Of a DNA stretch of 64,000 nt, positions 2,743 through 59,917 are shown piece by piece. Position numbers and translations under genes: made by a program. Origin of the DNA: Bacillota bacterium. GTDB lineage: Bacteria > Bacillota > Dethiobacteria > DTU022 > UBA8154. The DNA lies in contig JAAYRR010000133.1 in NCBI GenBank assembly GCA_012518675.1, forward strand, positions 7,015-71,014, written 5' to 3'. The stretch's first letter is position 1, and each line of letters starts with the position of its first letter. Under the pieces are notes generated by a model, which saw only the letters and a program-made list of their open reading frames with translations, was not told the DNA's origin and made no database searches.

Positions 2743-2797
2743 GCCTGCCGCTCAGTCCTCCTTTTTTCATATTTACTGCATGTTTACTAGTTTATAA

Positions 2798-3241
2798 TCA
2801 ATGCAAATCTTCTTTTTTCTGATCGTCAGCGATAATGTCCTGATAATCATAGGTAAATTCCACCAGCCTGGGAGCCATATAGATGGCGGCCTCCCACCGC
2901 AAAGCCAGGGCAATAGCATCACTGGGCCTGGAATCCAAAATTAGCTCTTCCCCTTGATATTCTAGATAAAGTTCAGCATAAAAAGTACTTTCGATAATAT
3001 TTGTAATCACTATTTTTTTCAGGGTGCCCCCTAATTTTTCGCAAATAGATTTTAGCAAGTCATGCGTTAACGGACGCGGCGAGGCGCCGCCTTGTAACAC
3101 CAAGGCAATAGACTGGGCTTCAAAGGGCCCAATAGCTATCGGCAAAACCTTTGTTTCTGCCTGATCTACCAATAAAACTAAAAAGCCGCCACCCTGATCC
3201 AGGGTTACCGCTTTTACCTTCATTTCCAGCAGTTTAACCAT
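2798..3241 (-). CDS. Bifunctional nuclease (BFN/DUF151) domain protein
   Basis: 147 aa. The N-terminal MKVKAVTLDQGGGFLVLLVDQAETKVLPIAIGPFEAQSIA pattern matches BFN-domain proteins. Confidence 0.65.
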   Translation of the reverse strand: MVKLLEMKVKAVTLDQGGGFLVLLVDQAETKVLPIAIGPFEAQSIALVLQGGASPRPLTHDLLKSICEKLGGTLKKIVITNIIESTFYAELYLEYQGEELILDSRPSDAIALALRWEAAIYMAPRLVEFTYDYQDIIADDQKKEDLH

Positions 3242-3443
3242 CCCCTTTCAGGCTTTCCAAGCAAAATACGTCCCTCTGCCTGCAAACCTGTTCCAGTCAG
3301 CAAGAAAAAATTAGCCACCTTAGTTGTTTTTATTAACTGAAAAACATTGTACCAATTAGTTAAAAAGTGGTATACTGAATTAATTATACCAAACAAAAAT
3401 ACCCTTGTCAGAAATTTCTCAGGCCCCGTTCACATTCCGAAAA

Positions 3444-4712: not shown

Positions 4713-4974
4713 AAATAATTACTTCAAGCAAAAAATAAAACAAGACGGCTGCCGAAACGCCTTCCATCTGCCTGCCGGCGCCTACGCCTCCCTGAACGCG
4801 CATTACCCTGACCATCCTGCTGCTGCCCGTAGGCCACTCTTCCATAATTTACCCCCCTTGCCGGTTCTTCATCCCTGTAAAATATGGAACCCGGCGCCCT
4901 AAAAAAGCAACATATAAATTTTGCAAGATGGTTATGCTAGTATAAAAATGACCGGGGCCGGGAGGTAGACCCCC

Positions 4975-5012
4975 CCAAAAACAGACTGGGAAGCAAATTA
5001 AAAGGTCTGTTT
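4975..5012 (+). terminator. Stem-loop (AACAGAC...GTCTGTT) plus T5 in the treZ leader; possible attenuator
   Basis: Perfect 7-bp stem followed by TTTTT, about 60 nt upstream of the treZ start and downstream of a TTGCAA/TATAAA-like promoter. Confidence 0.45.
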
Positions 5013-5069
5013 TTCTTACCGGTATATCAAAATATCAAATACGTCTGGCAGATTTTTGAGGTGAATATT

Positions 5070-6875: not shown

Positions 6876-7272
6876 GTCCTGGTTTCGATAGTACATTTTT
6901 GCACAGTTCGTCCTTCTATTTTTACCCTTGCAGCCGGTAAAGTTTTCTGTTTCCTGCCTTCTTTTTTGCCGGCCCGGGTTCTTACCCCGGCAAAAGGGGA
7001 AAAAATCTTTTTTTTATAATGGATACTATACTTTTAAAATATTATTGCATGTTTCATTGTTGCAAATATTTTTAAGAAAATTTCAAAACCGAATGTTTAC
7101 TTGAAACATTAGGGAAAAATTTTGTAGGCACAGAACCCTTTCCGTTTAGCTCTGCATCGCATTCCAGAAGAAATTAACTATAATTGGCATCTATTTTGCA
7201 TTATTAAATTGTTAATTTTACCAGAAAAATGAGTACCCTGGAAATTATTGTTTTAAGAACAGGAGGAAAATA

Positions 7273-7668
7273 ATGAAACTGGAAAAAGTTGACCACATCT
7301 GTATCGCAGTAAAAAACCTGAAGGAAGCAGAAAGTTATTTTTCCCGTATTTTTGGCTTGGAACCCGATGATCGCTATGTGGATGAAAAGGAAAAAATTGA
7401 CGTGGTGCGCTATTATATCGGTGAGGTAGGCCTCGAACTTGTAGCTTCCACCGCCCCGGATGGGGAGGTAGCAAGGTTTATTGAAAAAAGAGGCGAAGGG
7501 ATCTTCATCCTGTCCCTCAAGGTACCCGATGTAGAAGAAGCTGTAGTTGAGTTGCGTAAAAAAGGTGTTCCCATTCTGGATGAAGAGCCGCGTAAATGGC
7601 GGCAAAGCAAATATACCTTCATCAGCCCTAAGGATATGTTTGGGGTGCTGTTGGAGATTATTGATTAA
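7273..7668 (+). CDS. VOC/glyoxalase-family protein, probable methylmalonyl-CoA epimerase
   Basis: 131 aa. N-terminal KVDHICIAVKNL.EA and GEGIFILSLKV fit the paired beta-alpha-beta-beta-beta VOC fold seen in methylmalonyl-CoA epimerases. AGGAGGAAAATAATG RBS. Confidence 0.65.
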   Translation: MKLEKVDHICIAVKNLKEAESYFSRIFGLEPDDRYVDEKEKIDVVRYYIGEVGLELVASTAPDGEVARFIEKRGEGIFILSLKVPDVEEAVVELRKKGVPILDEEPRKWRQSKYTFISPKDMFGVLLEIID

Positions 7669-32331: not shown

Positions 32332-32415
32332 TTTTGGGGTTTAGGTTTGGGTTTTGGGTTTTGGGGTTTGGGTTTTTGGGGTTTTGGGGTTTGGGTTTGG
32401 GGGCTTGGGGTGGGG
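32332..32415 (+). repeat. Telomere-like G/T microsatellite, about 12 units of T3-5G3-5 (TTTTGGGG/TTTGGG)
   Basis: Direct reading: TTTTGGGGTTTAGGTTTGGGTTTTGGGTTTTGGGGTTTGGGTTTTTGGGGTTTTGGGGTTTGGGTTTGGGGGCTTGGGGTGGGG. It is intergenic between gatB and the tRNA. A G-quadruplex could form on the + strand and an i-motif on the - strand. Confidence 0.85.
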
Positions 32416-32604: not shown

Positions 32605-32632
32605 TTGACATATTTTAAGCTTCAGTTATAAT
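32605..32632 (+). promoter_or_regulatory. Sigma-A promoter (TTGACA-N16-TATAAT) upstream of tRNA-Leu
   Basis: Perfect consensus hexamers about 60 nt upstream of the tRNA 5' end. Confidence 0.5.
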
Positions 32633-32692: not shown

Positions 32693-32778
32693 GCCCGAGT
32701 GTCGGAACCGGCAGACGAGACGGTCTCAAAAACCGTTGTCCTTTGGACGTGTGAGTTCGAGTCTCACCTCGGGCACCA
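32693..32778 (+). tRNA. tRNA-Leu (anticodon CAA), class II with long variable arm, CCA encoded
   Basis: Acceptor stem GCCCGAG/CTCGGGC. Anticodon stem ACGGT/ACCGT with loop CUCAAAA (U33, CAA, A37). T-arm GTGAG-TTCGAGT-CTCAC. 3' ACCA. Confidence 0.8.
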
Positions 32779-33199: not shown

Positions 33200-34015
33200 T
33201 TAGCGTTGTATTTCAAGCCAATCCTTATCTTCTTTTTCCAGCTTACCAAGCAGATACGGGTTTAAAACCCTTAAATAGGTTCCCTTCATACCCAAAGAAT
33301 GGGTTTCAATTACGCCTGCACTTTTAAGTTTTCGCAAGGCATTAACAATTACCGACCTGGTAATATTCAATTTATCAGCAACCTTACTGGTCACAATCAG
33401 GCCCTCATTTGCTTCTAATTCTTTAAATACCCGGACCGCTGCTTCCAATTCAGAATACGACAGCGCCCCTATCGCTTGCTGTACGGCAGCCTTGTTTCTG
33501 ATTTTTTCTTCGGTTATTCCTGATTCTAAATTTAAGATTTCTATGCCTGCAACAGTAGCCACTGTCTCCGCAAGAATCAAATCACCTGTATCAAAAGGTT
33601 TGTGGGGACGAATTAAAATAAGAACCCCCAACCTTTTATTGCGGCCCAAAATAGGAACAAAGGTGGTAAATATATTTTTAAAAATACATGTTTCCGCCCT
33701 GTTAAAAATACATTTGTTATTACTTTGCGCCAAGTTTACCTTGCCCCGGCCTTCCAAGCCATACAACATAGGGTCTTGAAAGTTTTCCGGAAACTGTCCT
33801 TTCTTTAAGAAACCGTCCATCAGCCCACAACTGTATTCATTTACAAGTGCATACCGTAAAATTTTGCCTTCGGTATCAGTAATATATACGTTAGCATGAA
33901 TTACATTTTTTAAAACCTTGATTACTTCAAAATGCTTCACTTTTTGTTCTGTTTGCAGTGTTTTACGAATAAAACGAGTCTTTTCCAGCAAAGAAGAATT
34001 AATCACTTTTACCAC
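33200..34015 (-). CDS. CodY-family GAF/wHTH transcriptional regulator, paralog 1
   Basis: The C-terminal 100 aa is nearly identical to the B. subtilis CodY HTH region (ADKLNITRSVIVNALRKLKSAGVIETHSLGMKGTYLRVLN). ILAETVATVAGIEIL and AVQQAIGALSYSELEA are also present. The N-terminal GAF portion is diverged. Confidence 0.8.
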   Translation of the reverse strand: MVKVINSSLLEKTRFIRKTLQTEQKVKHFEVIKVLKNVIHANVYITDTEGKILRYALVNEYSCGLMDGFLKKGQFPENFQDPMLYGLEGRGKVNLAQSNNKCIFNRAETCIFKNIFTTFVPILGRNKRLGVLILIRPHKPFDTGDLILAETVATVAGIEILNLESGITEEKIRNKAAVQQAIGALSYSELEAAVRVFKELEANEGLIVTSKVADKLNITRSVIVNALRKLKSAGVIETHSLGMKGTYLRVLNPYLLGKLEKEDKDWLEIQR

Positions 34016-34146
34016 CTCACTTTTTTTCTATATAAGGGTAATTTTTGTTAAAGGGACCTCCTTTTTGCCAAAAGAGCTGGAAGGAAGAACAAAAACAGAG
34101 GCCCCTGTAACAAAATAAGGGATCTTTCTGACAAATAACTGTAAAA

Positions 34147-35730
34147 TTATTCTACCTTCTCACCAATTTTACGTAATTTAAACCGCTGTATTTTCCCGGT
34201 TGCACTCTTGGGCAGTTCAGAAACAATTTCTACAAAGCGGGGGTATTTAAATTTGGCCAACCGATCCAAGGACCACTGTTTGAGTTCGTTTATTAGTTCA
34301 TCCGAACCGGTAAAGCCTTCCTTAAGTACCACAAAAGCTTTGGGTTTAATTAAATTTTTATGATCAGGGTACCCGATCACTGCACATTCCAGCACCGCAG
34401 GATGTTCAATCAGGCAACCTTCCACTTCTACCGGTGAAACCCAGATACCGCCAACTTTCAGCATGTCATCGTCCCTGCCCGCACAATGGTAATAACCATT
34501 TTCGTCTTGGTAGTAAGTGTCCCCAGTGTTCAGCCATTCACCTTGCATCGTAGAACGGGTTTTTTCCACCTTACGCCAATAATTTTGGGCAGCACTGCGG
34601 CCCTTCACATGCAGGGTTCCGATTTCGCCCTGTGGTACTTCCTTCCCTTCATTATCAACAATCCTTATTTCATACCCGGGAACAGGCTTCCCGGTTGCGC
34701 CCGGTTTAATGTCGCCAGGTCTGTTGGAAATATAGATATGCAACATTTCTGTTGAACCGATACCATCCAAAATATCGATACCAAAACGTTCCTTCCAGCG
34801 GCGGATGATATCTACCGGCAAAGCCTCACCTGCCGACACACATAATCTTACGGAAGTTAGTTCGTGATCGTTGGGATCCGCCTTGGCACCTGTTTCCTTT
34901 TCTTGGCGAGCCTTGTATTCAAGCATCTGCCCGTAGAGGGTGGGTACACCAAAGAAAATTGTAGGACGGAAACGTTCAATGTGACTAAATACACTTTCGG
35001 GAGTCGGGCGGGATTTGTTTAAAATCACTGAACCGCCTACAGCCAAGGGGAAAAACAAACCGTTCCCGATACCATAGGCAAAAAATAACCGGGCTGCTGA
35101 AAAACAGATATCATTTTCATTCATTCCCAAAACTCCCTGGGCAAAATTTTCAGAAGCAACCAGGGGGCTTTCCATACAGTGTACAGCTCCCTTGGGGGGG
35201 CCTGTTGAACCTGAACTGTAAAGCCAGAACCCTACATCGTCCTTGGTTGTTTTCACAGTTTCCAAAATAGGAGAAGCATTTTTTACCTTTTGCCTGAAGG
35301 GGATTAACGGTTCATCATCTGCAACAACAATCATATCCCTAAGGTAAAGCAGATCACCTTTAATATCATTAATCAACGGTACCAGGTCTTCCGATATAAT
35401 CAAGGCCTTGGCCCGGCTGTCGTTAAGTAAGTATTCATAATCGTTGGGTGTAAGCATGGTGTTGATTGGAATGGGCACAGCCCCAATTTTCATGGCACCG
35501 AAAAACATTACAAGAAATTGAGGTTCATCCAGCATCATGAGCATAATGCGATCATCTATACCCAAACCCATTTCACGAAAAGCGTTGCCGGTTTTATTGG
35601 CCATTTCCTGCAGTTCGCTATAAGTGTAGTTGCGCCTTTCAGTATAAATGGCAACTTTATGACCTCTTCCCTGCCGAATATTTCTATCTAAAAAATAATC
35701 TGCCGCGTTAAAAAAAGGTTGGTTTTTCAT
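34147..35730 (-). CDS. Aromatic-acid--CoA ligase, benzoate-CoA ligase family (AMP-forming), copy 1
   Basis: AMP-binding motifs WLYSSGSTGPPKGAVH and GYGxTE-like GIGSTEMLH, the C-terminal ATGKIQR, and 527 aa, typical for BCL/4-hydroxybenzoate-CoA ligases. Confidence 0.75.
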   Translation of the reverse strand: MKNQPFFNAADYFLDRNIRQGRGHKVAIYTERRNYTYSELQEMANKTGNAFREMGLGIDDRIMLMMLDEPQFLVMFFGAMKIGAVPIPINTMLTPNDYEYLLNDSRAKALIISEDLVPLINDIKGDLLYLRDMIVVADDEPLIPFRQKVKNASPILETVKTTKDDVGFWLYSSGSTGPPKGAVHCMESPLVASENFAQGVLGMNENDICFSAARLFFAYGIGNGLFFPLAVGGSVILNKSRPTPESVFSHIERFRPTIFFGVPTLYGQMLEYKARQEKETGAKADPNDHELTSVRLCVSAGEALPVDIIRRWKERFGIDILDGIGSTEMLHIYISNRPGDIKPGATGKPVPGYEIRIVDNEGKEVPQGEIGTLHVKGRSAAQNYWRKVEKTRSTMQGEWLNTGDTYYQDENGYYHCAGRDDDMLKVGGIWVSPVEVEGCLIEHPAVLECAVIGYPDHKNLIKPKAFVVLKEGFTGSDELINELKQWSLDRLAKFKYPRFVEIVSELPKSATGKIQRFKLRKIGEKVE

Positions 35731-36241
35731 TATTTATCCCCCCACTAAGTTGAATTTAATACACTAAGATTCCCAGAAAATCTTCCAGCCCTGTTTCCCT
35801 GCTCATTAAATAATTTTATATTGACAAAATACACCTTAAATTTTACATTACCCTACCCCCTCTTTGATGCTTGAAATATGTTAAAAAACTAGATATTTTT
35901 CTCAAAATTGCCTGAAAATATTTTTCTTGCGGGAAAAGGTTCACTGCTTTAAAAAATTCAAAGAGTCAAACTTCTTTTATTGTTATACCATGCAAGATAA
36001 GTACCATTAAAGTACATTTTTCTTCTAATTGCGATAGAACCGTAACCAGACCAGCCTTGATTATTCTTCCTGGCCTGCCTACCCATGTAAAATGTAGGTC
36101 ATTTTTGAAATTTAATTTTGAAAGATTGCAATATTGAAATGTATGTTAATGTTGTTTTTTTGCATTTTTTAGGGCTTTTGGAATCTTCAAACACTATTTA
36201 TTGTTCCCCTACTCGCTAATCTACAGATGCATAATGGACAT

Positions 36242-36266
36242 AAAAAAGCAGCTCCTGACGGAGCTA
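36242..36266 (-). terminator. Terminator (AGCTCC-GTCA-GGAGCT followed by T6 on the minus strand)
   Basis: Perfect 6-bp stem with a T-run, immediately downstream of the 70-aa ORF. Confidence 0.55.
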
Positions 36267-36306
36267 TCTTGGACACAATATTTTTTTTCGCTTAAATTTC
36301 CCAGCA

Positions 36307-36519
36307 CTACTCCCCGCTCATTTTTACAACGCTAATGAAAGAGTTCCCGGGGACCATTTCCCGACCACAGTTTAATTTTTCTGCTCCTGCCGCCATTTTT
36401 TTCTTTACGCCTGGCGCATCAAGTGTTTTTTCAATTTCTGAAAATTCCCTTAAAATATTGGAGAGTTTAACATCAACCAAGATCAGTTCTCTTTTCAATT
36501 TTTCAATTCTATTTAACAT
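36307..36519 (-). CDS. Hypothetical 70-aa helical protein (weak Spo0E-like resemblance)
   Basis: ORF sits between the CodY-like paralog 2 gene and a terminator. The IEKLKRELILV...SEIEKTLD pattern is reminiscent of Spo0E-family helical hairpins, but the signature is not exact. Confidence 0.35.
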   Translation of the reverse strand: MLNRIEKLKRELILVDVKLSNILREFSEIEKTLDAPGVKKKMAAGAEKLNCGREMVPGNSFISVVKMSGE

Positions 36520-36638
36520 TTTTACCCTTGCCTCCCGGATAAAAAATTATATTCTGCACATGCTTTCAATCTATTTTATAAGCCCTGGTCGGCAGTTTTT
36601 ACCACCGTTTTTGAATCCCGTAATTAATAAACGGCATG

Positions 36639-37451
36639 CTAGCGCATCCCAAGCCAATTTTTATCCTCTTTTTCCAGTCGATCCAGTAAATACGGGTTTA
36701 AGACCCTTAAATAGGTTCCTTTCATCCCCAGGGAATGAGTTTCTATTACGCCGGCACTTTTAAGCTTACGCAATGCGTTAACAATAACAGACCTGGTTAT
36801 GCTCAATTTATCTGCAACCTTGCTGGTCACAATCAAACCTTCATCTGTATCCAATTCTTTAAAAACTCGTACCGCTGCCTCCAACTCTGAATAGGACAGC
36901 GCTCCTATTGCTTGCTGCACGATCATCTTGTTTCTGATCTTCTTTTCAAGTTTTTCAGATTTTGAATTCAGAATTGACATCCCGGAAACCGTTGCCACTG
37001 TTTCAGCCAAAATTAAATCCCCGGTATCAAAAGGTTTCAGGGGACGGGTTAAAATTAGTGTTCCTATTCTTTTATTCTGGCCAATAATGGGCACCAGCGT
37101 TGTAAATATATTTTTAAAAACACAGTTTTCGGCCTGTGTAAATATGCACCTGCTAACTTCCTGTGTTAAATTTATCCTGCTTCGGTTGTCGATCCCATGC
37201 AACAGGGAATCCTGATATTTTTCAGTAAATTTGCCTTTTTTAAGGAACCTATCCAGAAGCTCACAACTGTATTCATCCACCAAGGCATGCCCCAAAATAA
37301 GACCATCGGTATCAATAATAAACACATTGGCATGAATGACGTTCTTTAAAACTTCAATTATTTCGAAGAGTTTTACCCCCTGTTCTGTTTGCAAAGTTTT
37401 GCGAATAAAGCGGGTTTTTTCCAACAAAGAAGAATTAAGCAATGTTATCAC
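36639..37451 (-). CDS. CodY-family GAF/wHTH transcriptional regulator, paralog 2
   Basis: About 75 percent identical to paralog 1. The C-terminal HTH is essentially identical, while the N-terminal GAF differs at many positions. Confidence 0.8.
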   Translation of the reverse strand: MITLLNSSLLEKTRFIRKTLQTEQGVKLFEIIEVLKNVIHANVFIIDTDGLILGHALVDEYSCELLDRFLKKGKFTEKYQDSLLHGIDNRSRINLTQEVSRCIFTQAENCVFKNIFTTLVPIIGQNKRIGTLILTRPLKPFDTGDLILAETVATVSGMSILNSKSEKLEKKIRNKMIVQQAIGALSYSELEAAVRVFKELDTDEGLIVTSKVADKLSITRSVIVNALRKLKSAGVIETHSLGMKGTYLRVLNPYLLDRLEKEDKNWLGMR

Positions 37452-37615
37452 CTCCTCAACTCCTTATGTTTATATTAAAAATAGAGGGGCCTCCTCTTTA
37501 ATGCAAACGCTGCCTAAACAAATAAAACGGAGGCCCCTGGTACCAAAAATCTGCACAATTATAAATATTTAACTATTGATATTTAACGGCTTTTGAACAA
37601 CCGTATCTTACTTGG

Positions 37616-39211
37616 TTATTTGGAAGCGGCGTCAGCCTTTTCACTTGCCAAGCGCAGTTTAAACCGCTGAATTTTGCCGGTTGCACTCTTGGGTAGTTCA
37701 GAAATAAATTCTATCCAACGCGGATACTTATATTTGGCCATCCGCTCCAGGGCAAACTGCTTCAGTTCATTGGCCAGCTCTTCAGAACCGGCCGATCCAT
37801 CCTTGAGCACAACATAAGCCTTGGGTTTAATTAAATTCTTTTCATCAGGATGCCCGATCACTGCAGATTCCAGAACAGCAGGGTGTTCAATTAAACAGGC
37901 TTCCACCTCAACCGGCGATACCCAGATACCGCCTACCTTCAGCATATCATCGCCCCTGCCGGCACAGCGGTAATAGCCTTCGTCGTCTACATAATAGCTG
38001 TCACCGGTATCAAGCCATTCCCCCCGCATTGTGGAACGGGTTTTATCTACCTTGCGCCAGTAATTCTGGGCGGCACTGCGGCCTTTTGCCAACAGCCTGC
38101 CTATTTCCCCCTGGGGAACCTCGTTCCCTTCATCATCGACAATTTTAATTTCATAACCAGGGACCGGTTTGCCGGAGGTACCGGGCCTGACATCACCGGG
38201 CAGGTTGGAAATATAGATGTGCAACATTTCTGTAGAGCCGATGCCGTCTAAAATATCTACGCCAAAACGTTCCTTCCAGCGGCGGAGAATATCTTCCGGC
38301 AGGGCTTCCCCGGCCGAAACACACATCCGTACAGAAGAAAGTTCGTGGACTTCAGGATCGGGATCTACACCCTTTTCCTTATCCTGGCGTGCCTTGTATT
38401 CAAGCATCTGCCCATACAAGGTGGGTACACCGAAGAAAAGGGTAGGCCGGAAACGTTCCAGTACGCTAAACACACTTTCGGGAGTCGGGCGGGATTTATT
38501 TAAAACCACTGATCCGCCGGCGGCCATGGGGAAAAACATGCTGTTACCGATACCGTAGGCAAAAAACAGCCGTGCTGCCGAAAAACAGATGTCATCCTCG
38601 GTTACCCCCAACACACCTTTGCCATAGTTTGTGGCGGCAACCAGCGGGCTTTCCATACAGTGCACAGCACCCTTGGGGGGGCCAGTAGAACCTGAGCTGT
38701 AAAGCCAAAATCCCACATCGTCCTTGGTTGTATATTCAGCATCCAAAATAGGAGAAGCGTTTTTGACTTTTTGTCGGAAAGGAACTTGTGGTTCATCATC
38801 AGAGACAACAATCATATCCCTGAGATAAAGAAGATCCCCTTTAATACCACTGATTAATGGTACCAGTTCTTCAGAAATTACCAGCGCCTTGGCCCGGCTG
38901 TCATTTAGCAGGTATTCATAGTCGCTAGGTGTAAGCATGGTGTTAATCGGAACAGGTACAGCACCGATTTTGATGGCACCGAAGTACATTACAAAAAATT
39001 GGGGTTCATCCAGCATCAACAGTATAATCCGGTCGCCGACTTCTAAACCCAGCTCACGGAAAGCGTTGCCTGTTTTGTTGGCCATTTCCTGAATTTCACT
39101 GTAAGTATAATTGCGCCTGTCGGTATAAATGGCAACCTTATGTCCCCTGCCCTGTCGAATGTTCCGATCTAAAAAATAATCCGCAATGTTAAAGAAAGAT
39201 TGATTTTTCAT
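37616..39211 (-). CDS. Aromatic-acid--CoA ligase, benzoate-CoA ligase family, copy 2
   Basis: About 80 percent identical to copy 1, with the same AMP-binding motifs, 531 aa. Confidence 0.75.
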   Translation of the reverse strand: MKNQSFFNIADYFLDRNIRQGRGHKVAIYTDRRNYTYSEIQEMANKTGNAFRELGLEVGDRIILLMLDEPQFFVMYFGAIKIGAVPVPINTMLTPSDYEYLLNDSRAKALVISEELVPLISGIKGDLLYLRDMIVVSDDEPQVPFRQKVKNASPILDAEYTTKDDVGFWLYSSGSTGPPKGAVHCMESPLVAATNYGKGVLGVTEDDICFSAARLFFAYGIGNSMFFPMAAGGSVVLNKSRPTPESVFSVLERFRPTLFFGVPTLYGQMLEYKARQDKEKGVDPDPEVHELSSVRMCVSAGEALPEDILRRWKERFGVDILDGIGSTEMLHIYISNLPGDVRPGTSGKPVPGYEIKIVDDEGNEVPQGEIGRLLAKGRSAAQNYWRKVDKTRSTMRGEWLDTGDSYYVDDEGYYRCAGRGDDMLKVGGIWVSPVEVEACLIEHPAVLESAVIGHPDEKNLIKPKAYVVLKDGSAGSEELANELKQFALERMAKYKYPRWIEFISELPKSATGKIQRFKLRLASEKADAASK

Positions 39212-39360
39212 GATATGATCACCCCGTAAAATTTATAATTTTTAATAGGCTTATTGCCCTCAATAAACAATACCATTAATATTTCGCAAATATTTCAGAA
39301 AATGTGAGTACTTATTTTAAAAATTACATTCATCCAACCTCCTTTTACTGGGTGGGTACC

Positions 39361-39378
39361 TTAGCTGGGGTGTGCCAA
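39361..39378 (-). promoter_or_regulatory. Candidate sigma-54 (-24/-12) promoter TTGGCAC-N5-AGCTA
   Basis: The minus strand reads TTGGCACACCCCAGCTAA, with GG-N10-GC spacing correct. It lies about 150 nt upstream of ligase copy 2 and downstream of a sigma-54 activator gene. Confidence 0.4.
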
Positions 39379-39752
39379 ATCAGTTTCCAGAACCATTTTT
39401 CTTAAGATTGCTAAAAAGATTTTTTTGCGGCAAAAAACCCACAGGTTTCAAAACTTTAAAGAGTCCCACTAATTTTAATAATTAATTATGCAAAATAGGT
39501 GCCAGTTGAAACATCTATGTTTGCCAAGTGCGACTAAACCAGCCTGCGGGGGTCTTTTGAACTGCCCGGCCGCCCTTGAAACCTGCCCAAGAATCAAATC
39601 ATTTATGAAACTTATTTTAAAATAATTGCAAAACTGAAATGCGTAAATATGCTTTATATTAAAATAAAAAAAGCAGTTCCCTGGGGAGCTGTCCTAATTT
39701 TTAAGCGGAAAACAAGGCGGGCACTGCATAGGCAGGGTAGCCCAACCTTTGC

Positions 39753-41129
39753 CTATCCTCTCAGCTTTCTGGAAAGACTGGAAAAGCTGATGCCCAGCAT
39801 TTCCGCAGCCTCTTTCTGACTTTTACTTTGTTCCATTGCTTTGGTAATCACCGCCAGTTCAAATTCCTTGGTCATCTCTTTTAACGGTGCTATATCGTGA
39901 ACTGTAAACTTATCCTCAGGTTGATGCCCTGTATAGTTAATATAGGGAGCAGGAAGATCAGCAACTGTAATCACATTTTCCTTGGCCACTATCAAGAGCC
40001 GTTCCACCAGATTAGCCAATTCTCTGATGTTGCCCGGCCAGGGATACCAGTACAAATGCTTGATTACCTCCGGGCTGATTTTTTTATTGCGAATAGCATA
40101 TTTTTGCAAGAATTTGTCTTGAAAATAGGAAATTAACATGGGTATTTCCACCTTGCGATCCCGCAAAGGGGGCACCTCTACAGGAACAACATGCAACCTG
40201 AAATACAGGTCCTCCCGAAATTTACCTTCTTCAACCATTTTTTTAAGATCCCTGTTTGTCGCCCCCACGATACGCACATCCACAGGCAATAATTCTGTAC
40301 CACCCACCCTGGATACCTTTTTATCCTGCAAAACGTTAAGTAGTTTGGGCTGAACCGCCAGCGGCAGTTCACCTATTTCATCCAGAAAAAGTGTACCCCC
40401 ATCCGCCAGTTCAAAATAGCCTTTTTTGCCCCTTTTTAGGGCACCGGTAAAGGAACCCGGTTCATAACCAAACAGTTCGGTTTCAACTAAATTTATAGGT
40501 ATGGAGGCACAGTTAATTTTAACAAAGGGGCCGGTCATGTTACGGGGACTGCGTACGTGAATAAGGTGCGCAATCAATTCCTTACCTACACCTGTTTCAC
40601 CGTGCAGCAGCACGGTGGAGTCTACCTTGCTTAAATTAACAGCCAAGTCAATTATTGCCTCCATCATGCTGCTGCCAAATACTAATTCATAATCAGAATG
40701 TTGGCCTTTAATCTGTACAATTTTGTAAGGATCCTTGAAATTCACTTTTCCGCCGGGCCGTGGCAGGGGGTTATTTTTTTTAGCCTCTAAATAGGAGGCA
40801 TAGCTTCTAATATTGCATATTACCTTATTCAATTTTCCTGCAAGATCAAAAACAGGTGCTGAGGTAGCAATCACCTTGTGGCCGGTAATACATTTGACCT
40901 CCCCGGTAACAGCACTTTTTTTTTGAATAGCCTCCAGGGCTGTAGATCTGTCGATTATTTTTTTTGCGAGTAAAACATTTAGGCTTTCATATGCAAACAT
41001 ATCCATACCCATTAAAGAGTGGATTACCGGATTACAATAAAGAAACATCCCCTGAACATCGGTAATAAAAAAACCGTCGCCGGAGTGCTCAAAAAGTTCT
41101 GCCAAATTTACGGTACCCTTTACTTTCAA
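39753..41129 (-). CDS. Sigma-54-dependent transcriptional activator with N-terminal PAS sensor and C-terminal Fis-type HTH
   Basis: AAA+ sigma-54 interaction domain (GETGVGKE Walker A, GSFTGA, ESELFGY...), C-terminal HTH (EAAEMLGISFSSLSRKL), and an N-terminal PAS-like region of about 110 aa. Confidence 0.85.
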   Translation of the reverse strand: MKVKGTVNLAELFEHSGDGFFITDVQGMFLYCNPVIHSLMGMDMFAYESLNVLLAKKIIDRSTALEAIQKKSAVTGEVKCITGHKVIATSAPVFDLAGKLNKVICNIRSYASYLEAKKNNPLPRPGGKVNFKDPYKIVQIKGQHSDYELVFGSSMMEAIIDLAVNLSKVDSTVLLHGETGVGKELIAHLIHVRSPRNMTGPFVKINCASIPINLVETELFGYEPGSFTGALKRGKKGYFELADGGTLFLDEIGELPLAVQPKLLNVLQDKKVSRVGGTELLPVDVRIVGATNRDLKKMVEEGKFREDLYFRLHVVPVEVPPLRDRKVEIPMLISYFQDKFLQKYAIRNKKISPEVIKHLYWYPWPGNIRELANLVERLLIVAKENVITVADLPAPYINYTGHQPEDKFTVHDIAPLKEMTKEFELAVITKAMEQSKSQKEAAEMLGISFSSLSRKLRG

Positions 41130-41497: not shown

Positions 41498-42901
41498 TCA
41501 TTCGATGGCGGCCTCTTCCTTGGTTTGATAGTTGTACTGCCGGTAAACATCGGCCGTTCTGTCCTGAAGATAGAGATGATCAAAGTGCCCCCGGGAATCC
41601 TTGCGCATTTTTTCATAATAAGCCCGGGCTTCCGCCTGGCAGTTGGAACAGCCCTGGATGGGGATATTTATACAGCAGACCCTGCTACTCACCTTCCGAC
41701 CAGAAGCTTCCGAGTCTATTAACAGGTAACCCGGGCAGTCACCACATACCTTTAGCGTTTCCAGCTGTGTTTCCCTAATCTGATCGGTATCATAATAAAT
41801 CTGGCGTTTTCTTTGTACCCGCGCACCCGCTTTTTGGCGGGCGGCTGCTGCCAGGCTGTGACGCTGCTGAAAAATACCGTGTAGTTCATGTACAGTTTTT
41901 TTCAGTATATTTAAACGTTCCTGTTCCTCCTGCAGATATTGTTCCCGGTAATCAGGTTCATAAAGATGGGAATAATCTATGCCGGCCATCGCCATGATAA
42001 TACCCATGTTAACATATGGGAGGGCGGTTTCAATCGAATACCCCCCTTCCAATACAGCGATATCGGGGGCAAGCTTTTCATTTAACAGGGCATATCCGCG
42101 GGCGGAAAAGGACATATTGGCCAGTGGATCGCTGTAATGATTATCCTGCCCGGCAGAATTCACAATCAGCTCCGGTTGGAATTCATCCAGCACAGGGAGC
42201 ACCAGGTTGTCCAAAACGAAAAGAATACCTTCATCGGTAGTTCCCGGAGGCAGGGGAATATTCAGTGTAGTTCCTGCTGCCAGAGGCCCGCCAATTTCGC
42301 CCTTAAAGCCGCTGCCCGGGTAAAGGGTGCGCCCGTCCTGATGAAAAGAGATAAAAAGGGTATCAGGGTCGTGCCAGTAGATATCCTGTGTACCGTCCCC
42401 ATGGTGGACATCGGTGTCTATGACAGCTACACGCCGCAGCCCATATTTTTGGCGCAGGTATTCCACCATCACCGGTTCATTGTTAATATTACAAAAACCG
42501 CGATTGCCGTGGACCACCCGCAGCGCATGGTGCCCCGGGGGCCTGATCAAGGCAAAACCATTCTTAATTTCCCGCTTCATCAGGGCATCGGCAATGACCA
42601 GCGCCCCGCCGGCGGCAATCAGGTGTGCTTCTGTGGCCTGCGTGCCGACAGTGGGCACACAAAAATGTACCCGGGCAATGTCTTTGGATGCGGCTAAACG
42701 TGGCTGGTACTGGCGAATTTGGGGAAGATCCATAATCCCTTCCTCAAAAAGCTGATCCCTGGTATAAAGAAGCCTTTCTTCCCGTTCAGGGTGAGTAGGG
42801 GAAATGGCCCAGTCGAAGGCCGGGAAAAAAACCAGGCCGGTTTGGACAGGTGGTTTTTGGGCCGGTGGGTGAACACCGCTGTTTATATTTTTCTTTTTCA
42901 T
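41498..42901 (-). CDS. Histone deacetylase/acetoin-utilisation (AcuC/Aph) family deacetylase with Cys-rich C-terminal tail
   Basis: Arginase/deacetylase-fold motifs IRPPGHHA and DTDVHHGDGTQ, plus a C-terminal segment of about 90 aa containing seven Cys (CGDCPGY...CCINIPIQGCSNC). Confidence 0.75.
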   Translation of the reverse strand: MKKKNINSGVHPPAQKPPVQTGLVFFPAFDWAISPTHPEREERLLYTRDQLFEEGIMDLPQIRQYQPRLAASKDIARVHFCVPTVGTQATEAHLIAAGGALVIADALMKREIKNGFALIRPPGHHALRVVHGNRGFCNINNEPVMVEYLRQKYGLRRVAVIDTDVHHGDGTQDIYWHDPDTLFISFHQDGRTLYPGSGFKGEIGGPLAAGTTLNIPLPPGTTDEGILFVLDNLVLPVLDEFQPELIVNSAGQDNHYSDPLANMSFSARGYALLNEKLAPDIAVLEGGYSIETALPYVNMGIIMAMAGIDYSHLYEPDYREQYLQEEQERLNILKKTVHELHGIFQQRHSLAAAARQKAGARVQRKRQIYYDTDQIRETQLETLKVCGDCPGYLLIDSEASGRKVSSRVCCINIPIQGCSNCQAEARAYYEKMRKDSRGHFDHLYLQDRTADVYRQYNYQTKEEAAIE

Positions 42902-44574
42902 GGCTGCACCCCTTTAAATTCTTCAATAACCCCGGAGGCAATCTGGACACCAACGTCAAAAAGCCTGCCAGCTGTGTCCCAACCCCGGATCATATTAAAT
43001 TGTTCTTCCAGAAAAAATTCATAGCGGTTTGCATACTTTGCAATACCCCTGCGGGCAGCAATCTCTTGCAGCTTTTCTCTAGCCAGTTCTTTAGCCTCTG
43101 TTAGCTGCCAGTCGGGGTTGAATTTACCGGTAATTCCTTCCAAATTTAAGGAATAGGTTTGTTTTTCTGTATCAGCATGCAAGAGCAAAGCAAGGGTGGG
43201 CCTGGCCACTGCAGTGCCCAAGGCGTTGGCCACCGGGGAGTAACGGTGCACCAGCGCCCGGCAACCAAGGCCAGCCGCCAAAGCAGGAACAAAAGCCCCG
43301 GCTGCAGCACCAATTCCCACCACACGTTCCGGCCCCACCTGCCGTTTATTAATGATTTCCCAAATTTTATAAGCAGGTTCCTGTTCCCAGGATTTAAACA
43401 TTTCTTCAATACCTTCCTCCAGCCTGCTGTTTATCAGTTTAACTACCCGGCGGGCAAATCCCTTTACCGTCAGCCCTGCCTGGCTGGCAACCTTTCCCAG
43501 AGCGCTGCCGGAAAGAGCCAACGGGCCCAATTTGCCGCCCCCCAAAAGGTTTACAGCATCGGTGGGGGTGGCTGCCGGACCGCCAAAACAGGCTGCAGGG
43601 CCCAAACGATCCGGGCCGATAGTTATTTTTTCGCCGTCCCACCGCAAGGTACTGTCCCCCCCTAAGGCCATTGAACGCAGGGCAAAAGAACGCACATGGG
43701 AATAACGGCCTTCAATCAAGGCTCCCCGGGAGGCATAAAGCGGTTCCCCTTCCAGGATGAGTGCCAAGTCGGTGGTGGTACCGCCAATATCCACTACTAC
43801 AGAAGTTTGCCGATCCATGGTCAGGGCAAAGGCGCCCATTACACTTGCTGCCGGGCCGGAAAAAACGGTTTCACAAGGGTAACGCAGGGAGACCTCCAAA
43901 GGCATCGTTCCCCCGTCAGCCTTGAGAATGTTGATCGGAACAGTAATCCCGCGTTCACGTATAGCTTCCTCAATTTCAGCGGCAAAACCGGCCCATTTTT
44001 CCCTGGTTACCGCAGTATAGTAAGTTGTTACCGCCCGGCGAAGAAAATTAAGCTGTCCGGAAACTTCAAAACCCCTGATTATCTCCAGGTGGGGGTAGTT
44101 TTCCTTTAAAATCCTTTCAACCTGGCGTTCCTGGCTGTTGTTACGCTGGGAGAACTTGCCAACCACCGCCACTTTACGCCGGCCGGCAGTTGCAATGAGC
44201 CTGCCAACTTCTTCAACCTGCGCTTGCTCCAGCGGTTCTATAATGCGACCACGAAAATCTGTAGCCCCCTTTAGAAAATAGGCCCCCGGAAAAAAGCCCA
44301 GGCTGTGCAAATTGAGGCCCGGGCCGGGGATAAGAATTAGCGCCACCTGTTCTCCCCCGCCCGTAGCCAAAAGGTTGGTGACCAGCGTAGTGCTAAGCAC
44401 CACCTGTTTAACCCCGCTGCCTTCTATCCCCTGCAGCAGTTCATCCAACACAGTAAAAATAGAACATTGCAGGTTGTCTGCCTGTGTCGGCTGTTTGGCA
44501 GTTTTTAAGATTTGCCCTGTGGAAAAAAGCACCCCGTCGGTAAAGGTACCCCCTACATCGATGCCAATCAGCAT
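42898..44574 (-). CDS. Hydantoinase/oxoprolinase (HyuA N-terminal) family protein
   Basis: MLIGIDVGGTFTDGVLF ASKHA-fold N-terminus, 558 aa. Overlaps the downstream deacetylase gene by 4 nt (ATGA), so probably one operon. Confidence 0.6.
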   Translation of the reverse strand: MLIGIDVGGTFTDGVLFSTGQILKTAKQPTQADNLQCSIFTVLDELLQGIEGSGVKQVVLSTTLVTNLLATGGGEQVALILIPGPGLNLHSLGFFPGAYFLKGATDFRGRIIEPLEQAQVEEVGRLIATAGRRKVAVVGKFSQRNNSQERQVERILKENYPHLEIIRGFEVSGQLNFLRRAVTTYYTAVTREKWAGFAAEIEEAIRERGITVPINILKADGGTMPLEVSLRYPCETVFSGPAASVMGAFALTMDRQTSVVVDIGGTTTDLALILEGEPLYASRGALIEGRYSHVRSFALRSMALGGDSTLRWDGEKITIGPDRLGPAACFGGPAATPTDAVNLLGGGKLGPLALSGSALGKVASQAGLTVKGFARRVVKLINSRLEEGIEEMFKSWEQEPAYKIWEIINKRQVGPERVVGIGAAAGAFVPALAAGLGCRALVHRYSPVANALGTAVARPTLALLLHADTEKQTYSLNLEGITGKFNPDWQLTEAKELAREKLQEIAARRGIAKYANRYEFFLEEQFNMIRGWDTAGRLFDVGVQIASGVIEEFKGVQP

Positions 44575-46202: not shown

Positions 46203-46634
46203 TCAGACGTCTTTTTCCTCCTGAATTTTATCTTTGATCAGCTTCCAGAAGAAAGGGTTTCGTTTTCGCAAGGCCACCGGTTTCCCGTCCTTATTTACAA
46301 AAGCATGTGTTGTCTGACCTGTGGCCAGCAGCGTTGCCTTTTCAGCATGTGTAATTTCATATTGAAAACCTAACTTAACCTCCTGCAGGAAATTAAGTTT
46401 GGTGGTAATTTTGAGCAGATCATCATAACGGGCTGGGCTCTTGTATTGACAATACGCCTCAATTACCGGTAAAAATATTTCGTTTTGTTCCAGGTATTTA
46501 TAGTCCATGCCCATCGCCCGGAAAAACTCGCTGCGCCCAACTTCAAACCAGATAAAATAGTTGGCGTAATAAACCACCCCCATCTGATCAGTATCCTTAT
46601 AACGAACCCGCTGGATTATCTCATTGTAGTTCAT
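46203..46634 (-). CDS. Acyl-CoA thioesterase, hotdog fold (YbgC/4HBT family)
   Basis: RVRYKDTDQMGVVYYANYFIWFEVGR, about 140 aa. Confidence 0.75.
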   Translation of the reverse strand: MNYNEIIQRVRYKDTDQMGVVYYANYFIWFEVGRSEFFRAMGMDYKYLEQNEIFLPVIEAYCQYKSPARYDDLLKITTKLNFLQEVKLGFQYEITHAEKATLLATGQTTHAFVNKDGKPVALRKRNPFFWKLIKDKIQEEKDV

Positions 46635-57622: not shown

Positions 57623-59917
57623 TTGCTTACCAAAGAACAAACTTTAACCGAACAAACGTTAGCCAAATTTTTTGTGCCCCAGGGTGTCGCTGTCATTGGA
57701 GCATCCAAAGACCCTGCCAAAGTAGGAAATGCCGTTGTAAAAAATTTGTTAGCCAGCAACTATGGTGGCAATATTTATCCGGTTAATCCGAAGGAGGAGG
57801 AGATTTTTGGGCTCAAATGCTATCCGAACGTAAAGGATATACCGCCAAAAACCAAGGACGGAGACGGTGATAATGTAGAACTGGCAGTGATTGCTATTCC
57901 TGCTGCCTTCGTCCTTAAAGCCCTGGAAGACTGTGCCCAAAGAGGTATCCGTTACACTATTGTTATTACTGCCGGTTTCAAAGAAATAGGACCACAGGGG
58001 ATGGAACTGGAAAAAAAATTGACTGCTTTTTGCCGTGAACAAAAAATTCGTCTTTTGGGGCCCAACTGTGTAGGGCTTATCCATACCCATACCCCAATTA
58101 ATGCCTCCTTTAGCCGGGGCATTCCCCACAAGGGCAACATTGCCTTTATTTCTCAAAGCGGTGCCATTCTGCTTTCCATCCTGGACTGGAGTCAGATGGC
58201 CGGCATTGGTTTTTCACATTTTGTCAGCTTAGGTAATAAGGCTGACCTACAAGAAACAGATTTTTTGGAATATGCCGCCTGGGATCCGGCTACAAAAGTA
58301 ATCCTCTGCTATTTGGAAGATATTACTTTTGGGCAAAAATTTTTGGAGGTAGCCACACGTGTTTCTGCACATAAACCAATCGTCGTTTTAAAATCAGGAT
58401 CCAGCCCCTCGGGGGCCCGGGCCGCCTCATCCCATACCGGCGCCCTGGCAGGAACCGATAATGCCTATGATGCAGCCTTTCGAAAAAGTGCTGTGCTCCG
58501 GGCCCACAACATGGGGGAACTTTTTGATATAGCAGCTGCTTTTGCCCACCAGCCCCTGCCGGTGGGAGATAAAATTGCCATTGTAACCAATTCCGGCGGG
58601 CCGGGAATTTTAGCCACAGACCGGATTGAAAAAACGGGGTTGAGAATGGCTGGTTTTACTACAGAAACAAAAAAACAACTGCGTTCGCACCTGCCAAAAG
58701 AGGCCAGCATTTATAACCCGGTGGATATCTTGGGTGATGCCGGGGCAGATCGCTACTATTTCACCTTGGAAAAGGTGCTCCAGGATCCGCAAGTAGAAGC
58801 TGTAATAGCTTTGTTTTGCCCCACCGCCCTGTCCGACCCGGCAGAAATTTCCCGGGCAATTGTTGATGTGCAGCAAAAGGCACCCCAAAAACCCTTGTTA
58901 ACGGTTCTCATGGGTGGCAAAGAAATACAAGCTGGAAAAGATGTCCTCTTAGAAGCCGGCATACCGTCCTATACCTTTCCTGAAAACGCCGTTACGGCTT
59001 TAGAAGGTATGGTCCGTTACGCCAAAAATAAAAACCGGCTTATGCAAAGAAAAACTGTACAGCCCGGTGAAGTTAAAATAACTGCAGCAAAAAAAGGAGA
59101 TATGCAGTTACCTGAAAAACAGCTTTATAATACAACACAGGTTAAGGCCTCCTTTTACGATGCTTTGATGGAAAGAAGGGTAGTACTTTCAGAACATGAA
59201 GGAATAGAGACCCTAAACGCCTTCAACATCCCAACCGCTAAAACGTTTTTAGCCAAGGATCCCCAGGAGGCAGCAGAAAAGGCGGAACTGGCCGGGTTCC
59301 CTGTAGTGCTTAAAGTTGCTTCCCCACAGATTTTGCATAAAAGTGATATTGGCGGGGTAGTACCAAACCTTAATAACCCTGAAGAAGTTAAAAAGCATTT
59401 CCGGGAGATCATGCAAAGGGTGCAACATTTTTATCCGAATGCCCCTTTATTTGGCATTACAGTGCAGAAAATGATGCCCCCGGGCATGGAAATTATTATC
59501 GGCTCCTCAGAGGATGTCCAGTTTGGACCCTTGCTTGTTTTCGGACTTGGTGGCATCTATGTTAACCTCTTTGAAGACGTTTCCATGCGGTTGGCCGCAA
59601 ACCTCCACGAACAGGATGTCGAGGAAATGATCAAAGAAACAAAGGCATACAACCTTATAAAAGGCTTTCGGGGAAGCAATCCTTTGGATCTGCAGGCCCT
59701 GAAAAACGCTATTTTAAACACTGCCCAGCTTGTTACCAATTTCCCGGAAATTAAAGAAATGGACATTAACCCCCTACTGGTTTATGAAAAGGGTGTCTGT
59801 GCAGTCGATGTAAAGATCACACTTTCCCACCGCCTGCTGAACAACACCTTCTCTCCCCGGGAACAGGCGGTACACCAAGAAAATTTAGCAGCAGAGCTAA
59901 CAGAAAGGAGCGTCTAG
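57623..59917 (+). CDS. Acetyl-CoA synthetase (ADP-forming), fused alpha/beta (CoA-binding + ATP-grasp)
   Basis: N-terminal CoA-binding domain (VAVIGASKDPAKVGN), ligase-CoA middle domain, and C-terminal ATP-grasp. 764 aa. TTG start with a GGGGTAGGA RBS. Confidence 0.8.
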   Translation: MLTKEQTLTEQTLAKFFVPQGVAVIGASKDPAKVGNAVVKNLLASNYGGNIYPVNPKEEEIFGLKCYPNVKDIPPKTKDGDGDNVELAVIAIPAAFVLKALEDCAQRGIRYTIVITAGFKEIGPQGMELEKKLTAFCREQKIRLLGPNCVGLIHTHTPINASFSRGIPHKGNIAFISQSGAILLSILDWSQMAGIGFSHFVSLGNKADLQETDFLEYAAWDPATKVILCYLEDITFGQKFLEVATRVSAHKPIVVLKSGSSPSGARAASSHTGALAGTDNAYDAAFRKSAVLRAHNMGELFDIAAAFAHQPLPVGDKIAIVTNSGGPGILATDRIEKTGLRMAGFTTETKKQLRSHLPKEASIYNPVDILGDAGADRYYFTLEKVLQDPQVEAVIALFCPTALSDPAEISRAIVDVQQKAPQKPLLTVLMGGKEIQAGKDVLLEAGIPSYTFPENAVTALEGMVRYAKNKNRLMQRKTVQPGEVKITAAKKGDMQLPEKQLYNTTQVKASFYDALMERRVVLSEHEGIETLNAFNIPTAKTFLAKDPQEAAEKAELAGFPVVLKVASPQILHKSDIGGVVPNLNNPEEVKKHFREIMQRVQHFYPNAPLFGITVQKMMPPGMEIIIGSSEDVQFGPLLVFGLGGIYVNLFEDVSMRLAANLHEQDVEEMIKETKAYNLIKGFRGSNPLDLQALKNAILNTAQLVTNFPEIKEMDINPLLVYEKGVCAVDVKITLSHRLLNNTFSPREQAVHQENLAAELTERSV

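Follow-up and report, generated by a model that had tools for sequence, protein, structure and literature searches.

The stretch of DNA considered here, referred to as the window, comprises 64,000 nt of a Bacillota bacterium (Dethiobacteria; DTU022; UBA8154; assembly GCA_012518675.1, contig JAAYRR010000133.1, positions 7,015-71,014 of the forward strand), and all coordinates are window positions. Between 33.2 and 41.1 kb, the five open reading frames (ORFs) reported in an earlier note on this DNA are all present and read in one direction on the minus strand: a gene for a sigma-54 enhancer-binding protein (EBP; 39753..41129, 458 aa), followed by two modules that each pair an AMP-forming aryl-CoA ligase of the benzoate-CoA-ligase family with a regulator of the CodY family. 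The first module consists of ligA (37616..39211, 531 aa) and codY-A (36639..37451, 270 aa as an ORF), with a further small gene, orf70, behind it, and the second of ligB (34147..35730, 527 aa) and codY-B (33200..34015, 271 aa as an ORF). Because database orthologues of the regulators are 267-268 aa long, the listed GTGs are probably three codons too early and the true codY starts near 37442 and 34006, giving proteins of 267 and 268 aa. The cassette adjoins gatCAB, and the rest of the window is made up of housekeeping genes. Databases automatically annotate the paired genes as "CodY" and "benzoate-CoA ligase family protein"; the parts belong to known families, the arrangement is new, and the sub-lineage of CodY has probably been re-purposed.

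Ligases, activator and promoters

Both ligases match the family model TIGR02262 (ligA 657.9 bits, ligB 644.8 bits, cut-off 375), bearing out their assignment in the earlier note. Their best solved relatives, in the range of 450-527 bits, are the anthranilate-CoA ligase AuaEII (4WV3, 527 bits) and the benzoate-CoA ligases BCL (2V7B) and BadA (4EAT), and the closest sequences outside the clade are benzoate/4-hydroxybenzoate-CoA ligases of Syntrophorhabdus type, at 67-71% identity. The A3 motif SSGSTGPPKG and the A10 motif PKSATGK are intact in both proteins, as in these relatives, and because of the family match, the close relatives and the intact catalytic motifs the two enzymes are almost certainly active aryl-CoA ligases. 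On the 3-hydroxybenzoate equivalog model they reach about 400 bits, far under its cut-off of 1000. Prediction of the substrate from pocket residues was abandoned, because the pocket is not conserved even between iso-functional ligases, so that sequence does not predict substrate (PMC8388817). What distinguishes the window ligases from known benzoate-type enzymes is that they are duplicated and that each is paired with a regulator.

The EBP consists of an N-terminal PAS domain (weak PAS_8/PAS_9 matches), an AAA+ domain (PF00158, E 1.7e-64; PF25601) with a Walker A motif GETGVGKE and the GSFTGA loop at residue 225, and a C-terminal Fis-type helix-turn-helix (HTH_8, PF02954). In this it resembles PrdR and AdhR, PAS-type EBPs of Clostridia, with which it shares the PAS, AAA+ (GSFTGA) and HTH_8 domains, a -24/-12 promoter and upstream sites, and one-component EBPs of PAS type are the commonest EBP type in Clostridiales (PMC6615313). 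The best NCBIfam match is PrdR-like, although the score of 360 bits is far under the cut-off of 795. Orthologues that are 64-100% identical lie directly upstream of every ligase-CodY module.

The pattern TGGYAY-N5-TTGCW, sought over the full window, has 3 matches where 0.5 would be expected, and the predicted promoters are of the TGGCAC-N5-TTGCA type with a -24 GG and a -12 GC. On the minus strand, predicted sigma-54 promoter A (TGGCACctattTTGCA, 39489..39504) is found 293 nt upstream of the ligA ATG, and promoter B (TGGTACttatcTTGCA, 35991..36006) 276 nt upstream of the ligB ATG; the perfect -24/-12 elements before both ligases agree with the placing of the modules, in the earlier note, downstream of a PAS/sigma-54 activator. 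In 10 loci such a motif precedes every ligase gene by 275-320 nt and is found at no other place in them. Each ligase promoter is in turn preceded, at a distance of about 100-150 nt, by a two-part element, TTTCA-N4-TGCAAT followed 29 nt on by TTTCA-N4-TGA, which is conserved at all ligase promoters of all loci. In candidate activator site A (39599..39640, minus strand; position weight matrix (PWM) score 61.9) the quasi-palindromes are ATTTCA-N4-TGCAAT and GTTTCA-N4-TGA, 29 nt apart, and in site B (36099..36140, minus strand; PWM score 57.8) they are ATTTCA-N4-TGCAAT and ATTTCA-N4-TGA. The element has the form expected of an EBP binding site, and the EBP presumably binds there.

The third match to the promoter pattern is on the plus strand at 7185..7200 (element span 7047..7200), with the halves of a two-part site at 7051-7066 and 7080-7095. 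A PWM built from the ligase-promoter upstream sites only, and then run over the whole window, gives its best non-self match at 7047-7096 (18.0, versus 9.4 for the next best and 7.4 for the 99.99th percentile). The gene behind this promoter (7273..7668, plus strand) encodes a 131-aa VOC-superfamily protein (PF13669, PF00903) that resembles methylmalonyl-CoA epimerases, with 89.9 bits on TIGR03081, under its cut-off of 115. Although promoter and gene are about 30 kb from the cassette, the selection of a third sigma-54 promoter by a matrix trained on the ligases suggests that the VOC gene is a third target, and that the EBP probably governs three promoters. A reconstruction of sigma-54 regulons in Clostridiales mentions no benzoate or aromatics, CoA ligases or CodY (PMC6615313), and the predicted targets here (aryl-CoA ligase, CodY-like regulator, VOC protein) are not among its regulons.

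An intrinsic terminator (GGACAGCTCCCCAGGGAACTGC plus a T-run, 39661..39694, minus strand; recognised by sequence and palindrome) follows the EBP gene, and another, a 7-bp stem plus CTTTTTTATG (36239..36265, minus strand; flagged at 36266-36249), ends operon A. Given the terminators behind the EBP gene and behind orf70, and the lack of a strong sigma-70 promoter in either ligase-codY spacer, the transcription units are likely EBP alone, ligA-codY-A-orf70 and ligB-codY-B. The last gene of operon A, orf70 (36307..36519, minus strand, 70 aa), is a conserved ORF of unassigned family without a Pfam or NCBIfam match. It is called after codY-A in all two-module loci, and found there only, with 70-100% identity by tblastn, and its dN/dS of 0.08 against the ORF of a second such locus (L004) marks it as a real gene.

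The ligase-codY spacers each contain a predicted GC-rich stem on the minus strand with a T-rich tract behind it, AGGGGCCTCC ... GGAGGCCCCT in the spacer of ligA and codY-A (37485..37538), and AGGGGCCTCT ... GGAGGTCCCT in that of ligB and codY-B (34052..34106). Across 8 loci RNAalifold finds 9 pairs, 4 of them with compensatory changes, which in the single-module lineages read GGAGAGCCTCC/GGAGGCTCTCC. The stem is 93% paired and its score is reached by 0 of 500 shuffles, but slide controls are also high, so that support for it is moderate. Possibly it is a partial terminator by which the ratio of ligase to regulator is set, or an RNA-stability element; a weak miRNA-precursor-like Rfam match on the ligB/codY-B hairpin reflects hairpin shape only.

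Roughly 280 nt of leader precede each ligase (leader A, 39212..39488; leader B, 35731..35990; both minus strand), with an identity between A and B of 0.60, slightly above the 0.52-0.55 of shuffled sequences. Each contains a CodY-box-like site, at 39395-39411 in A and at 35895-35911 (2 mismatches) in B, and these are at homologous positions downstream of the promoters; the window as a whole has 19 such sites versus 7.9 expected, 6 of them inside the 8-kb cassette. A structured leader or riboswitch was considered and rejected, as the leaders have no Rfam match at E <= 1 and RNAalifold returned no consensus pairs across nine of them. Both leaders also carry a Shine-Dalgarno sequence followed by an ATG-TAA start-stop (39324-39345 in A, 35843-35863 in B), which is kept in the leaders of all two-module loci, as ATG-TAG in one of them (L001), and in leader A an overlapping ORF of 12 codons begins 4 nt upstream of the start-stop.

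Membership and divergence of the CodY proteins

CodY is regarded as a global sensor of nutrients that is present in one copy, has a fixed address in the genome and answers to two known effectors. Canonical members (B. subtilis, S. aureus, E. faecalis, C. difficile), which are global repressors sensing GTP and the branched-chain amino acids, are built from a GAF-like domain, a long linker helix and a winged helix-turn-helix, and the same architecture is found in the window proteins. Full-length matches to PF06018, the CodY GAF-like domain, were obtained for codY-A (E 9e-43) and codY-B (E 2e-40), together with matches to PF08222, the CodY helix-turn-helix (E 8e-26 and 2e-25), so that profile searches place the regulators with CodY, as the earlier note had proposed, and not with a non-CodY family. 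An AlphaFold2 (AF2) model (pLDDT 72; pocket loops 83-113 of low confidence) has a 41-residue linker helix, and the top Foldseek matches of this model in the PDB are all CodY, with TM scores of 0.7-0.86. In complexes of the S. aureus and E. faecalis proteins, the residues at DNA or across the dimer are T213, S215, V216, V218 and R222, L235-G236-M237 of the wing, and LSYS at 179-182 (PMC10415144); the corresponding DNA-contact motifs LSYS, ITRSVIVNALRK and SLGMKGTY are identical to canonical CodY in both window proteins. Judged by profiles, predicted fold and DNA-contact residues, the regulators are true members of the CodY family.

They are also strongly diverged members. Identity among canonical CodYs (from Dethiobacter, Ca. 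Contubernalis, Ca. Syntrophonatronum and Natranaerobius) is 73-90%, versus 53-58% between these and the ligase-linked proteins, and in a tree the ligase-linked proteins form a monophyletic clade on a long stem. The curated equivalog models for canonical CodY give a divided answer, NF003170 being passed by both proteins and TIGR02787, with a cut-off of 267.2, failed by both (262.6 bits for codY-A, 256.3 bits for codY-B). Ligase-linked and canonical proteins share 49% identity in the GAF domain, 56% in the linker and 70% in the DNA-binding domain, compared with 71, 84 and 90% among canonical proteins and 68, 74 and 92% between codY-A and codY-B. The expectation that switched canonical-invariant positions would be concentrated in the GAF domain was rejected, with 8 in the GAF domain, 5 in the linker and 7 in the DNA-binding domain, although overall divergence is still greatest in the GAF domain.

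Several of the changes fall on the GTP site, which in S. aureus CodY is formed by V22, F24, S43, R45, K47, H70, E153 and K158 (PMC5100569). At these positions the residues of copy A are V, L, D, D, L, K, S and K, those of copy B V, H, D, E, K, Q, E and E. Among 108 canonical relatives F24 is kept in 103, E153 in 106 and K/R158 in 102, and each window copy is without two of the three; at the conserved positions F24, R/K44, E153 and K/R158 the residues are L, T, S and K in copy A and H, T, E and E in copy B. Furthermore, the loop forming GTP motif 1 is shorter by two deleted residues in the clade, and there is a Phe at pocket position 65, which is Val or Met in the comparison CodYs and Val in the canonical relatives. 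Compared with canonical CodY, the window has two diverged copies with changes at 24, 44, 65 and 153 or 158.

The copies differ from each other in a similar region. Of the 16 fixed differences between A and B, eight fall in linker helix 150-171, a helix that contributes to the GTP site as well as to the four-helix bundle of the dimer (PMC10415144); this distribution would fit re-tuning of the ligand, insulation against heterodimers, or both.

When 1.84 billion representatives (50% clustering) were searched with a profile built from the clade, 1,481 CodY-family representatives were recovered, indicating a family far more diverse than its characterised members. The signature residues of the clade were found in 0 of the 1,481, and the ligase-linked clade has no 50%-identity representative of its own. 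There is an annotation problem here as well, in that pipelines label such proteins "GTP-sensing pleiotropic transcriptional regulator CodY" despite the missing conserved GTP-site residues.

Duplication and distribution of the unit

The ligases share 78.6% nucleotide and 81.4% protein identity and the regulators 75.9% and 75.2%, close to the roughly 80% and 75-80% estimated earlier. The duplicated stretch reaches about 450 nt upstream of each ligase gene and includes promoter, activator site and leader. Between the copies, dS is 1.3-1.5, near saturation; the ligases have a dN/dS of 0.08 and the CodYs one of 0.10, which by region comes to 0.13 (GAF domain), 0.12 (linker) and 0.04 (DNA-binding domain). 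These values uphold the view that the duplication is old and has been maintained. In trees, the copy-A and copy-B proteins of different species group by copy and not by species, so the duplication predates the speciations. By these substitution ratios both copies are retained under purifying selection and both genes are functional.

Double modules are present at the same gatCAB/rpmB site in at least three Dethiobacteria species known from metagenome-assembled genomes (MAGs) of biogas reactors and similar samples. A single EBP-ligase-CodY module, whose CodY is 63-65% identical, occupies the same gatCAB-adjacent site in other genomes, and a further lineage (P0015) carries a single module in a different neighbourhood; altogether the ligase-CodY pairing is kept in at least four lineages and at two genomic sites. 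Because distant relatives carry the single module, the pairing is older than the duplication and the three-gene unit is a conserved entity. From these trees and neighbourhoods the EBP-ligase-CodY unit is ancestral in a Dethiobacteria-like lineage, and its promoter-ligase-regulator part was tandemly duplicated later, long ago, in the sub-lineage to which the window belongs. The neighbourhood survey that the earlier note had called for thus finds the ligase-CodY pair to be confined to a narrow clade of Dethiobacteria-like MAGs and not a common operon, and its placing of the arrangement outside described regulons is matched by a literature search, which found no report joining CodY with a benzoate-CoA ligase or with sigma-54 control. 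The "CodY-like" proteins described from Synergistetes sit in the xerC operon (PMC9318921).

The most divergent member of the clade (P0020) was considered as a further ligase-CodY pair and rejected, as the 535 nt upstream of it encode no benzoate-type ligase. At its locus (L037, JGI24712J26585_10007580, 536-7033) it lies upstream of an AMP-forming acyl-CoA ligase 32% identical to ligA, with an acyl-CoA dehydrogenase, an SCP-x-type thiolase and a DUF35 protein as further neighbours, which is another CoA-thioester context.

Possible roles of the ligase-linked regulators

The overall picture that we propose is of a sigma-54 unit in which a PAS-type EBP, a ligase and a specialised CodY act together, the CodY responding to a non-canonical effector. 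For the picture as a whole we regard the chances of being right and of being wrong as evenly balanced, the wiring being far more secure in our view than the ligand. In such a scheme the PAS domain of the EBP would sense a small molecule, the simplest candidate being an aromatic acid or a signal related to one, and the EBP would assemble on the upstream sites and open the three sigma-54 promoters. The ligases would then turn one or two related aryl carboxylates into CoA thioesters, and the CodY-like proteins, being co-transcribed, would be present only while the EBP is active. Their DNA-reading surface is complete, and they would be expected to bind AT-rich sites of CodY-box type. Binding at the leader boxes, downstream of the promoters, could plausibly give negative feedback by roadblock, and action on CodY boxes elsewhere in the genome is equally possible. 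An effector other than, or besides, GTP is suggested because sensor and linker are strongly diverged both from canonical CodY and between the copies, and economical candidates would be the ligase product (aryl-CoA or aryl-AMP) or its substrate acid. The two copies might then each be tuned to a ligand of its own and be kept from forming heterodimers.

The guess of an aryl-CoA-type effector is made by analogy with BzdR. BzdR is an XRE-type helix-turn-helix joined to a shikimate-kinase-like protein, BadM an Rrf2 and BadR a MarR protein, families unrelated to CodY, and these regulators accompany full clusters of reductase and ring-cleavage genes, of a kind missing here. The likeness is that BzdR of Azoarcus, which senses benzoyl-CoA (PMC8388817), and BadR/BadM of R. 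palustris are, like the regulators in the proposed model, placed next to a benzoate-CoA ligase and read its product.

A number of observations weigh against this picture. The NF003170 equivalog still names the window regulators CodY (292.9 bits for codY-A and 287.6 bits for codY-B, cut-off 255). The single-module forms retain F24, E153 and K/R158, and the ancestral ligase-linked protein may, on these residues, still have bound GTP. The pocket for branched-chain amino acids is formed by R61, M62, M65, F71, P72, Y75 and P99, with F40 and F98 (PMC5314169, PMC9318921); F40, F71 and F98 are retained in the ligase-linked CodYs, in which branched-chain amino-acid sensing may persist, while the positions of P72, Y75 and P99 differ between the window copies. 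The position of R61, the partner of the isoleucine carboxylate (PMC5314169), is a Leu, but an argument that loss of Arg61 proves a new ligand was rejected, because Leu or Ile is also found there in canonical hslVU-linked relatives, and Arg occupies this position of B. subtilis CodY in only 11 of the 129 full-length top representatives among the 1,481. The leader CodY-box-like sites have 2-4 mismatches, are as AT-rich as their surroundings and are not kept in the single-module loci. No benzoyl-CoA reductase or ring-hydrolysis gene is found within the 64 kb or in the flanks of related loci, although most benzoate-CoA-type ligases have degradation genes nearby (PMC8388817), and the earlier description of the locus as a catabolic cassette is left unproven. 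What is said here of the effector of the CodY-like proteins we infer from sequence throughout. The earlier suggestion that the GAF domains sense a ligand of the adjacent ligase is accordingly retained in part: it is favoured by the divergence of sensor and linker and by the replaced GTP-site positions, has lost its Arg61 argument, and stays conditional. As to the rarity of Arg at position 61, either the alignment is shifted there, or most CodY-family proteins bind their amino-acid ligand unlike the Bacilli models.

Some of the same residues could be read as those of the ordinary CodY of this lineage, a global sensor of GTP as well as branched-chain amino acids that moved from the hslVU locus and was then duplicated, its adjacency to a ligase being accidental or a matter of dosage coupling. 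This would account for the clearing of the NF003170 cut-off by both proteins, for DNA-contact residues that are all canonical and for the retained F40, F71 and F98 of the amino-acid pocket. It bears on whether the window genes are paralogs, as the earlier note termed them, or relocated orthologues. Relatives at 57-58% identity and below are in a dprA-topA-xerC-hslV-hslU-codY-rpsB context, and the canonical relatives P0016, P0025, P0042 and P0044 in a topA/xerC-hslV-hslU-codY-rpsB context, unlike the window proteins, which are outside it and are predicted to be co-transcribed with an aryl-CoA ligase from a sigma-54 promoter. The class Dethiobacteria does have codY genes of canonical type, some of them hslVU-linked in Dethiobacter-labelled MAGs. 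In cassette-bearing assemblies, in line with the reading as an ordinary CodY, no canonical codY could be placed by accession-number proximity, and the canonical-codY contigs that were examined (about 55% GC) have a tetranucleotide correlation of about 0.64 with the window, versus 0.94-0.99 for cassette loci of the same genus. Because of these mismatches in GC and tetranucleotides the examined contigs belong to other organisms, and coexistence of an hslVU-linked codY with the cassette in one genome could not be shown; a scan of the genome collection with very specific peptides returned only two MAGs.

A moved codY of canonical type, which speaks for the same reading, is also known from the class. 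In other Dethiobacteria MAGs of about 55% GC (L028-L033, the P0172 cluster) it follows a MarR gene, beside a flavodoxin-like gene and a TRAP transporter and not hslVU, and its product is 73% identical to the Dethiobacter CodY (P0044). From this cluster, relocation without strong divergence occurs in the class, and relocation alone does not cause divergence of the degree seen in the ligase-linked clade, with its long branch and its 53-58% identity to proteins that are otherwise 73-90% identical across classes. Furthermore, a housekeeping regulator is unlikely to be expressed solely from an EBP-dependent sigma-54 promoter, behind a 1.6-kb ligase and a terminator-like hairpin; conserved GTP-site positions are replaced in both window copies; and the ligase pairing was kept across the four or more lineages and both sites, and through a duplication that copied both genes. 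Whether the genes are paralogs or relocated orthologues, their mode of expression and divergence argue against a plain global-CodY role, and we consider the ordinary relocated CodY rather unlikely, though it deserves to be kept in view.

If the specialised CodY of the proposed unit has indeed acquired an aryl-CoA-type or other non-GTP effector, a bolder possibility is that the two proteins are conditionally expressed alternative CodYs, made on an aromatic signal, that read global CodY boxes. We think this unlikely. If true, one catabolic signal would re-programme part of the global CodY regulon, with the two copies, insulated by their changes in the linker helix, as two separate input channels, and the case would be the first neofunctionalisation in the CodY family into pathway-specific regulators that sense CoA thioesters.

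Another possible site of action is suggested by the third promoter. The best CodY-box-like match near it (7068-7082, 2 mismatches) falls exactly between the two halves of its activator site, as if CodY-like proteins, which by operon structure would be made only after EBP activation, bound at or next to EBP sites, or to the EBP itself, and closed the three sigma-54 promoters once ligase suffices. The same segment in activator sites A and B matches the CodY box poorly, any contact between the proteins is hypothetical, and such an anti-activator role is quite improbable.

A further proposal concerns a gene upstream of the EBP gene, an HDAC-family (PF00850, E 4e-65) amidohydrolase/deacylase-like gene with a Cys-rich C-terminal extension (41498..42901, minus strand). 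It is syntenic in all two-module loci and also lies directly upstream of the EBP gene in the P0015 lineage (L019, 80% identity), where the downstream context is different, so that it goes along with EBP-ligase-CodY in two genomic contexts and may be part of the system. In R. palustris, HDAC-type deacetylases are described in the literature as reactivating acetylated benzoate-CoA ligase, and the A10 lysine is the acetylation target in BadA-type ligases, which deacetylases reactivate (PMC8388817). The A10 lysine motif PKSATGK is present in both window ligases, and a Sir2 gene is also found in the window. Aryl-CoA, a reactive acyl donor whose level the ligase would raise, might then acylate lysines of the ligase, the CodY-like protein or both, the HDAC-family enzyme reversing this and the acylation state, in place of a ligand in the pocket, setting the activity of the regulator. 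The cassette is without an acyltransferase gene, however, the HDAC-like gene is missing upstream in one lineage (L034), and nothing ties the CodY-like protein as such to acylation. Moreover, translational coupling joins the HDAC-like gene to a Hydantoinase_A-family ATPase-like gene (42898..44574, minus strand; PF01968, PF05378), which overlaps its start by 4 nt and is likewise syntenic in the two-module loci, and as the pair is about 370 nt from the EBP gene it is maybe an independent operon. Of the possibilities considered, an acylation circuit seems to us the most improbable.

Returning to the specialised, ligase-linked CodY, the history that it would imply is one in which a CodY scaffold was recruited into a small sigma-54-driven ligase operon and then duplicated, the DNA-reading head staying intact and the sensor and linker diverging. 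If the effector has changed, the cassette would be a tractable system for the re-tuning of GAF-type sensors in global regulators, for the insulation of paralogous dimeric regulators, and for the wiring of catabolic signals into a global regulon.

Three other genes of the window could be relevant to acyl-CoA metabolism or deacylation by their families, with no link to the cassette established: a YbgC/FadM-type acyl-CoA thioesterase (46203-46634, minus strand), the Sir2-family deacylase (1981-2742, minus strand) and an ADP-forming acyl-CoA synthetase (57623-59917, plus strand). Between gatB and the end of the cassette lies an 83-nt tRNA gene (32693-32775, plus strand; Rfam tRNA, 51.5 bits), and the sigma-70-like promoter before it (32605-32632) is perfect. 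The 1.1 kb of non-coding DNA that separate gatB from codY-B also contain a G-rich, telomere-like microsatellite of about 11 copies of TTTGGGG (32333-32411), which could form G-quadruplexes and over which a 120-aa "ORF" is an artefact of the repeat.

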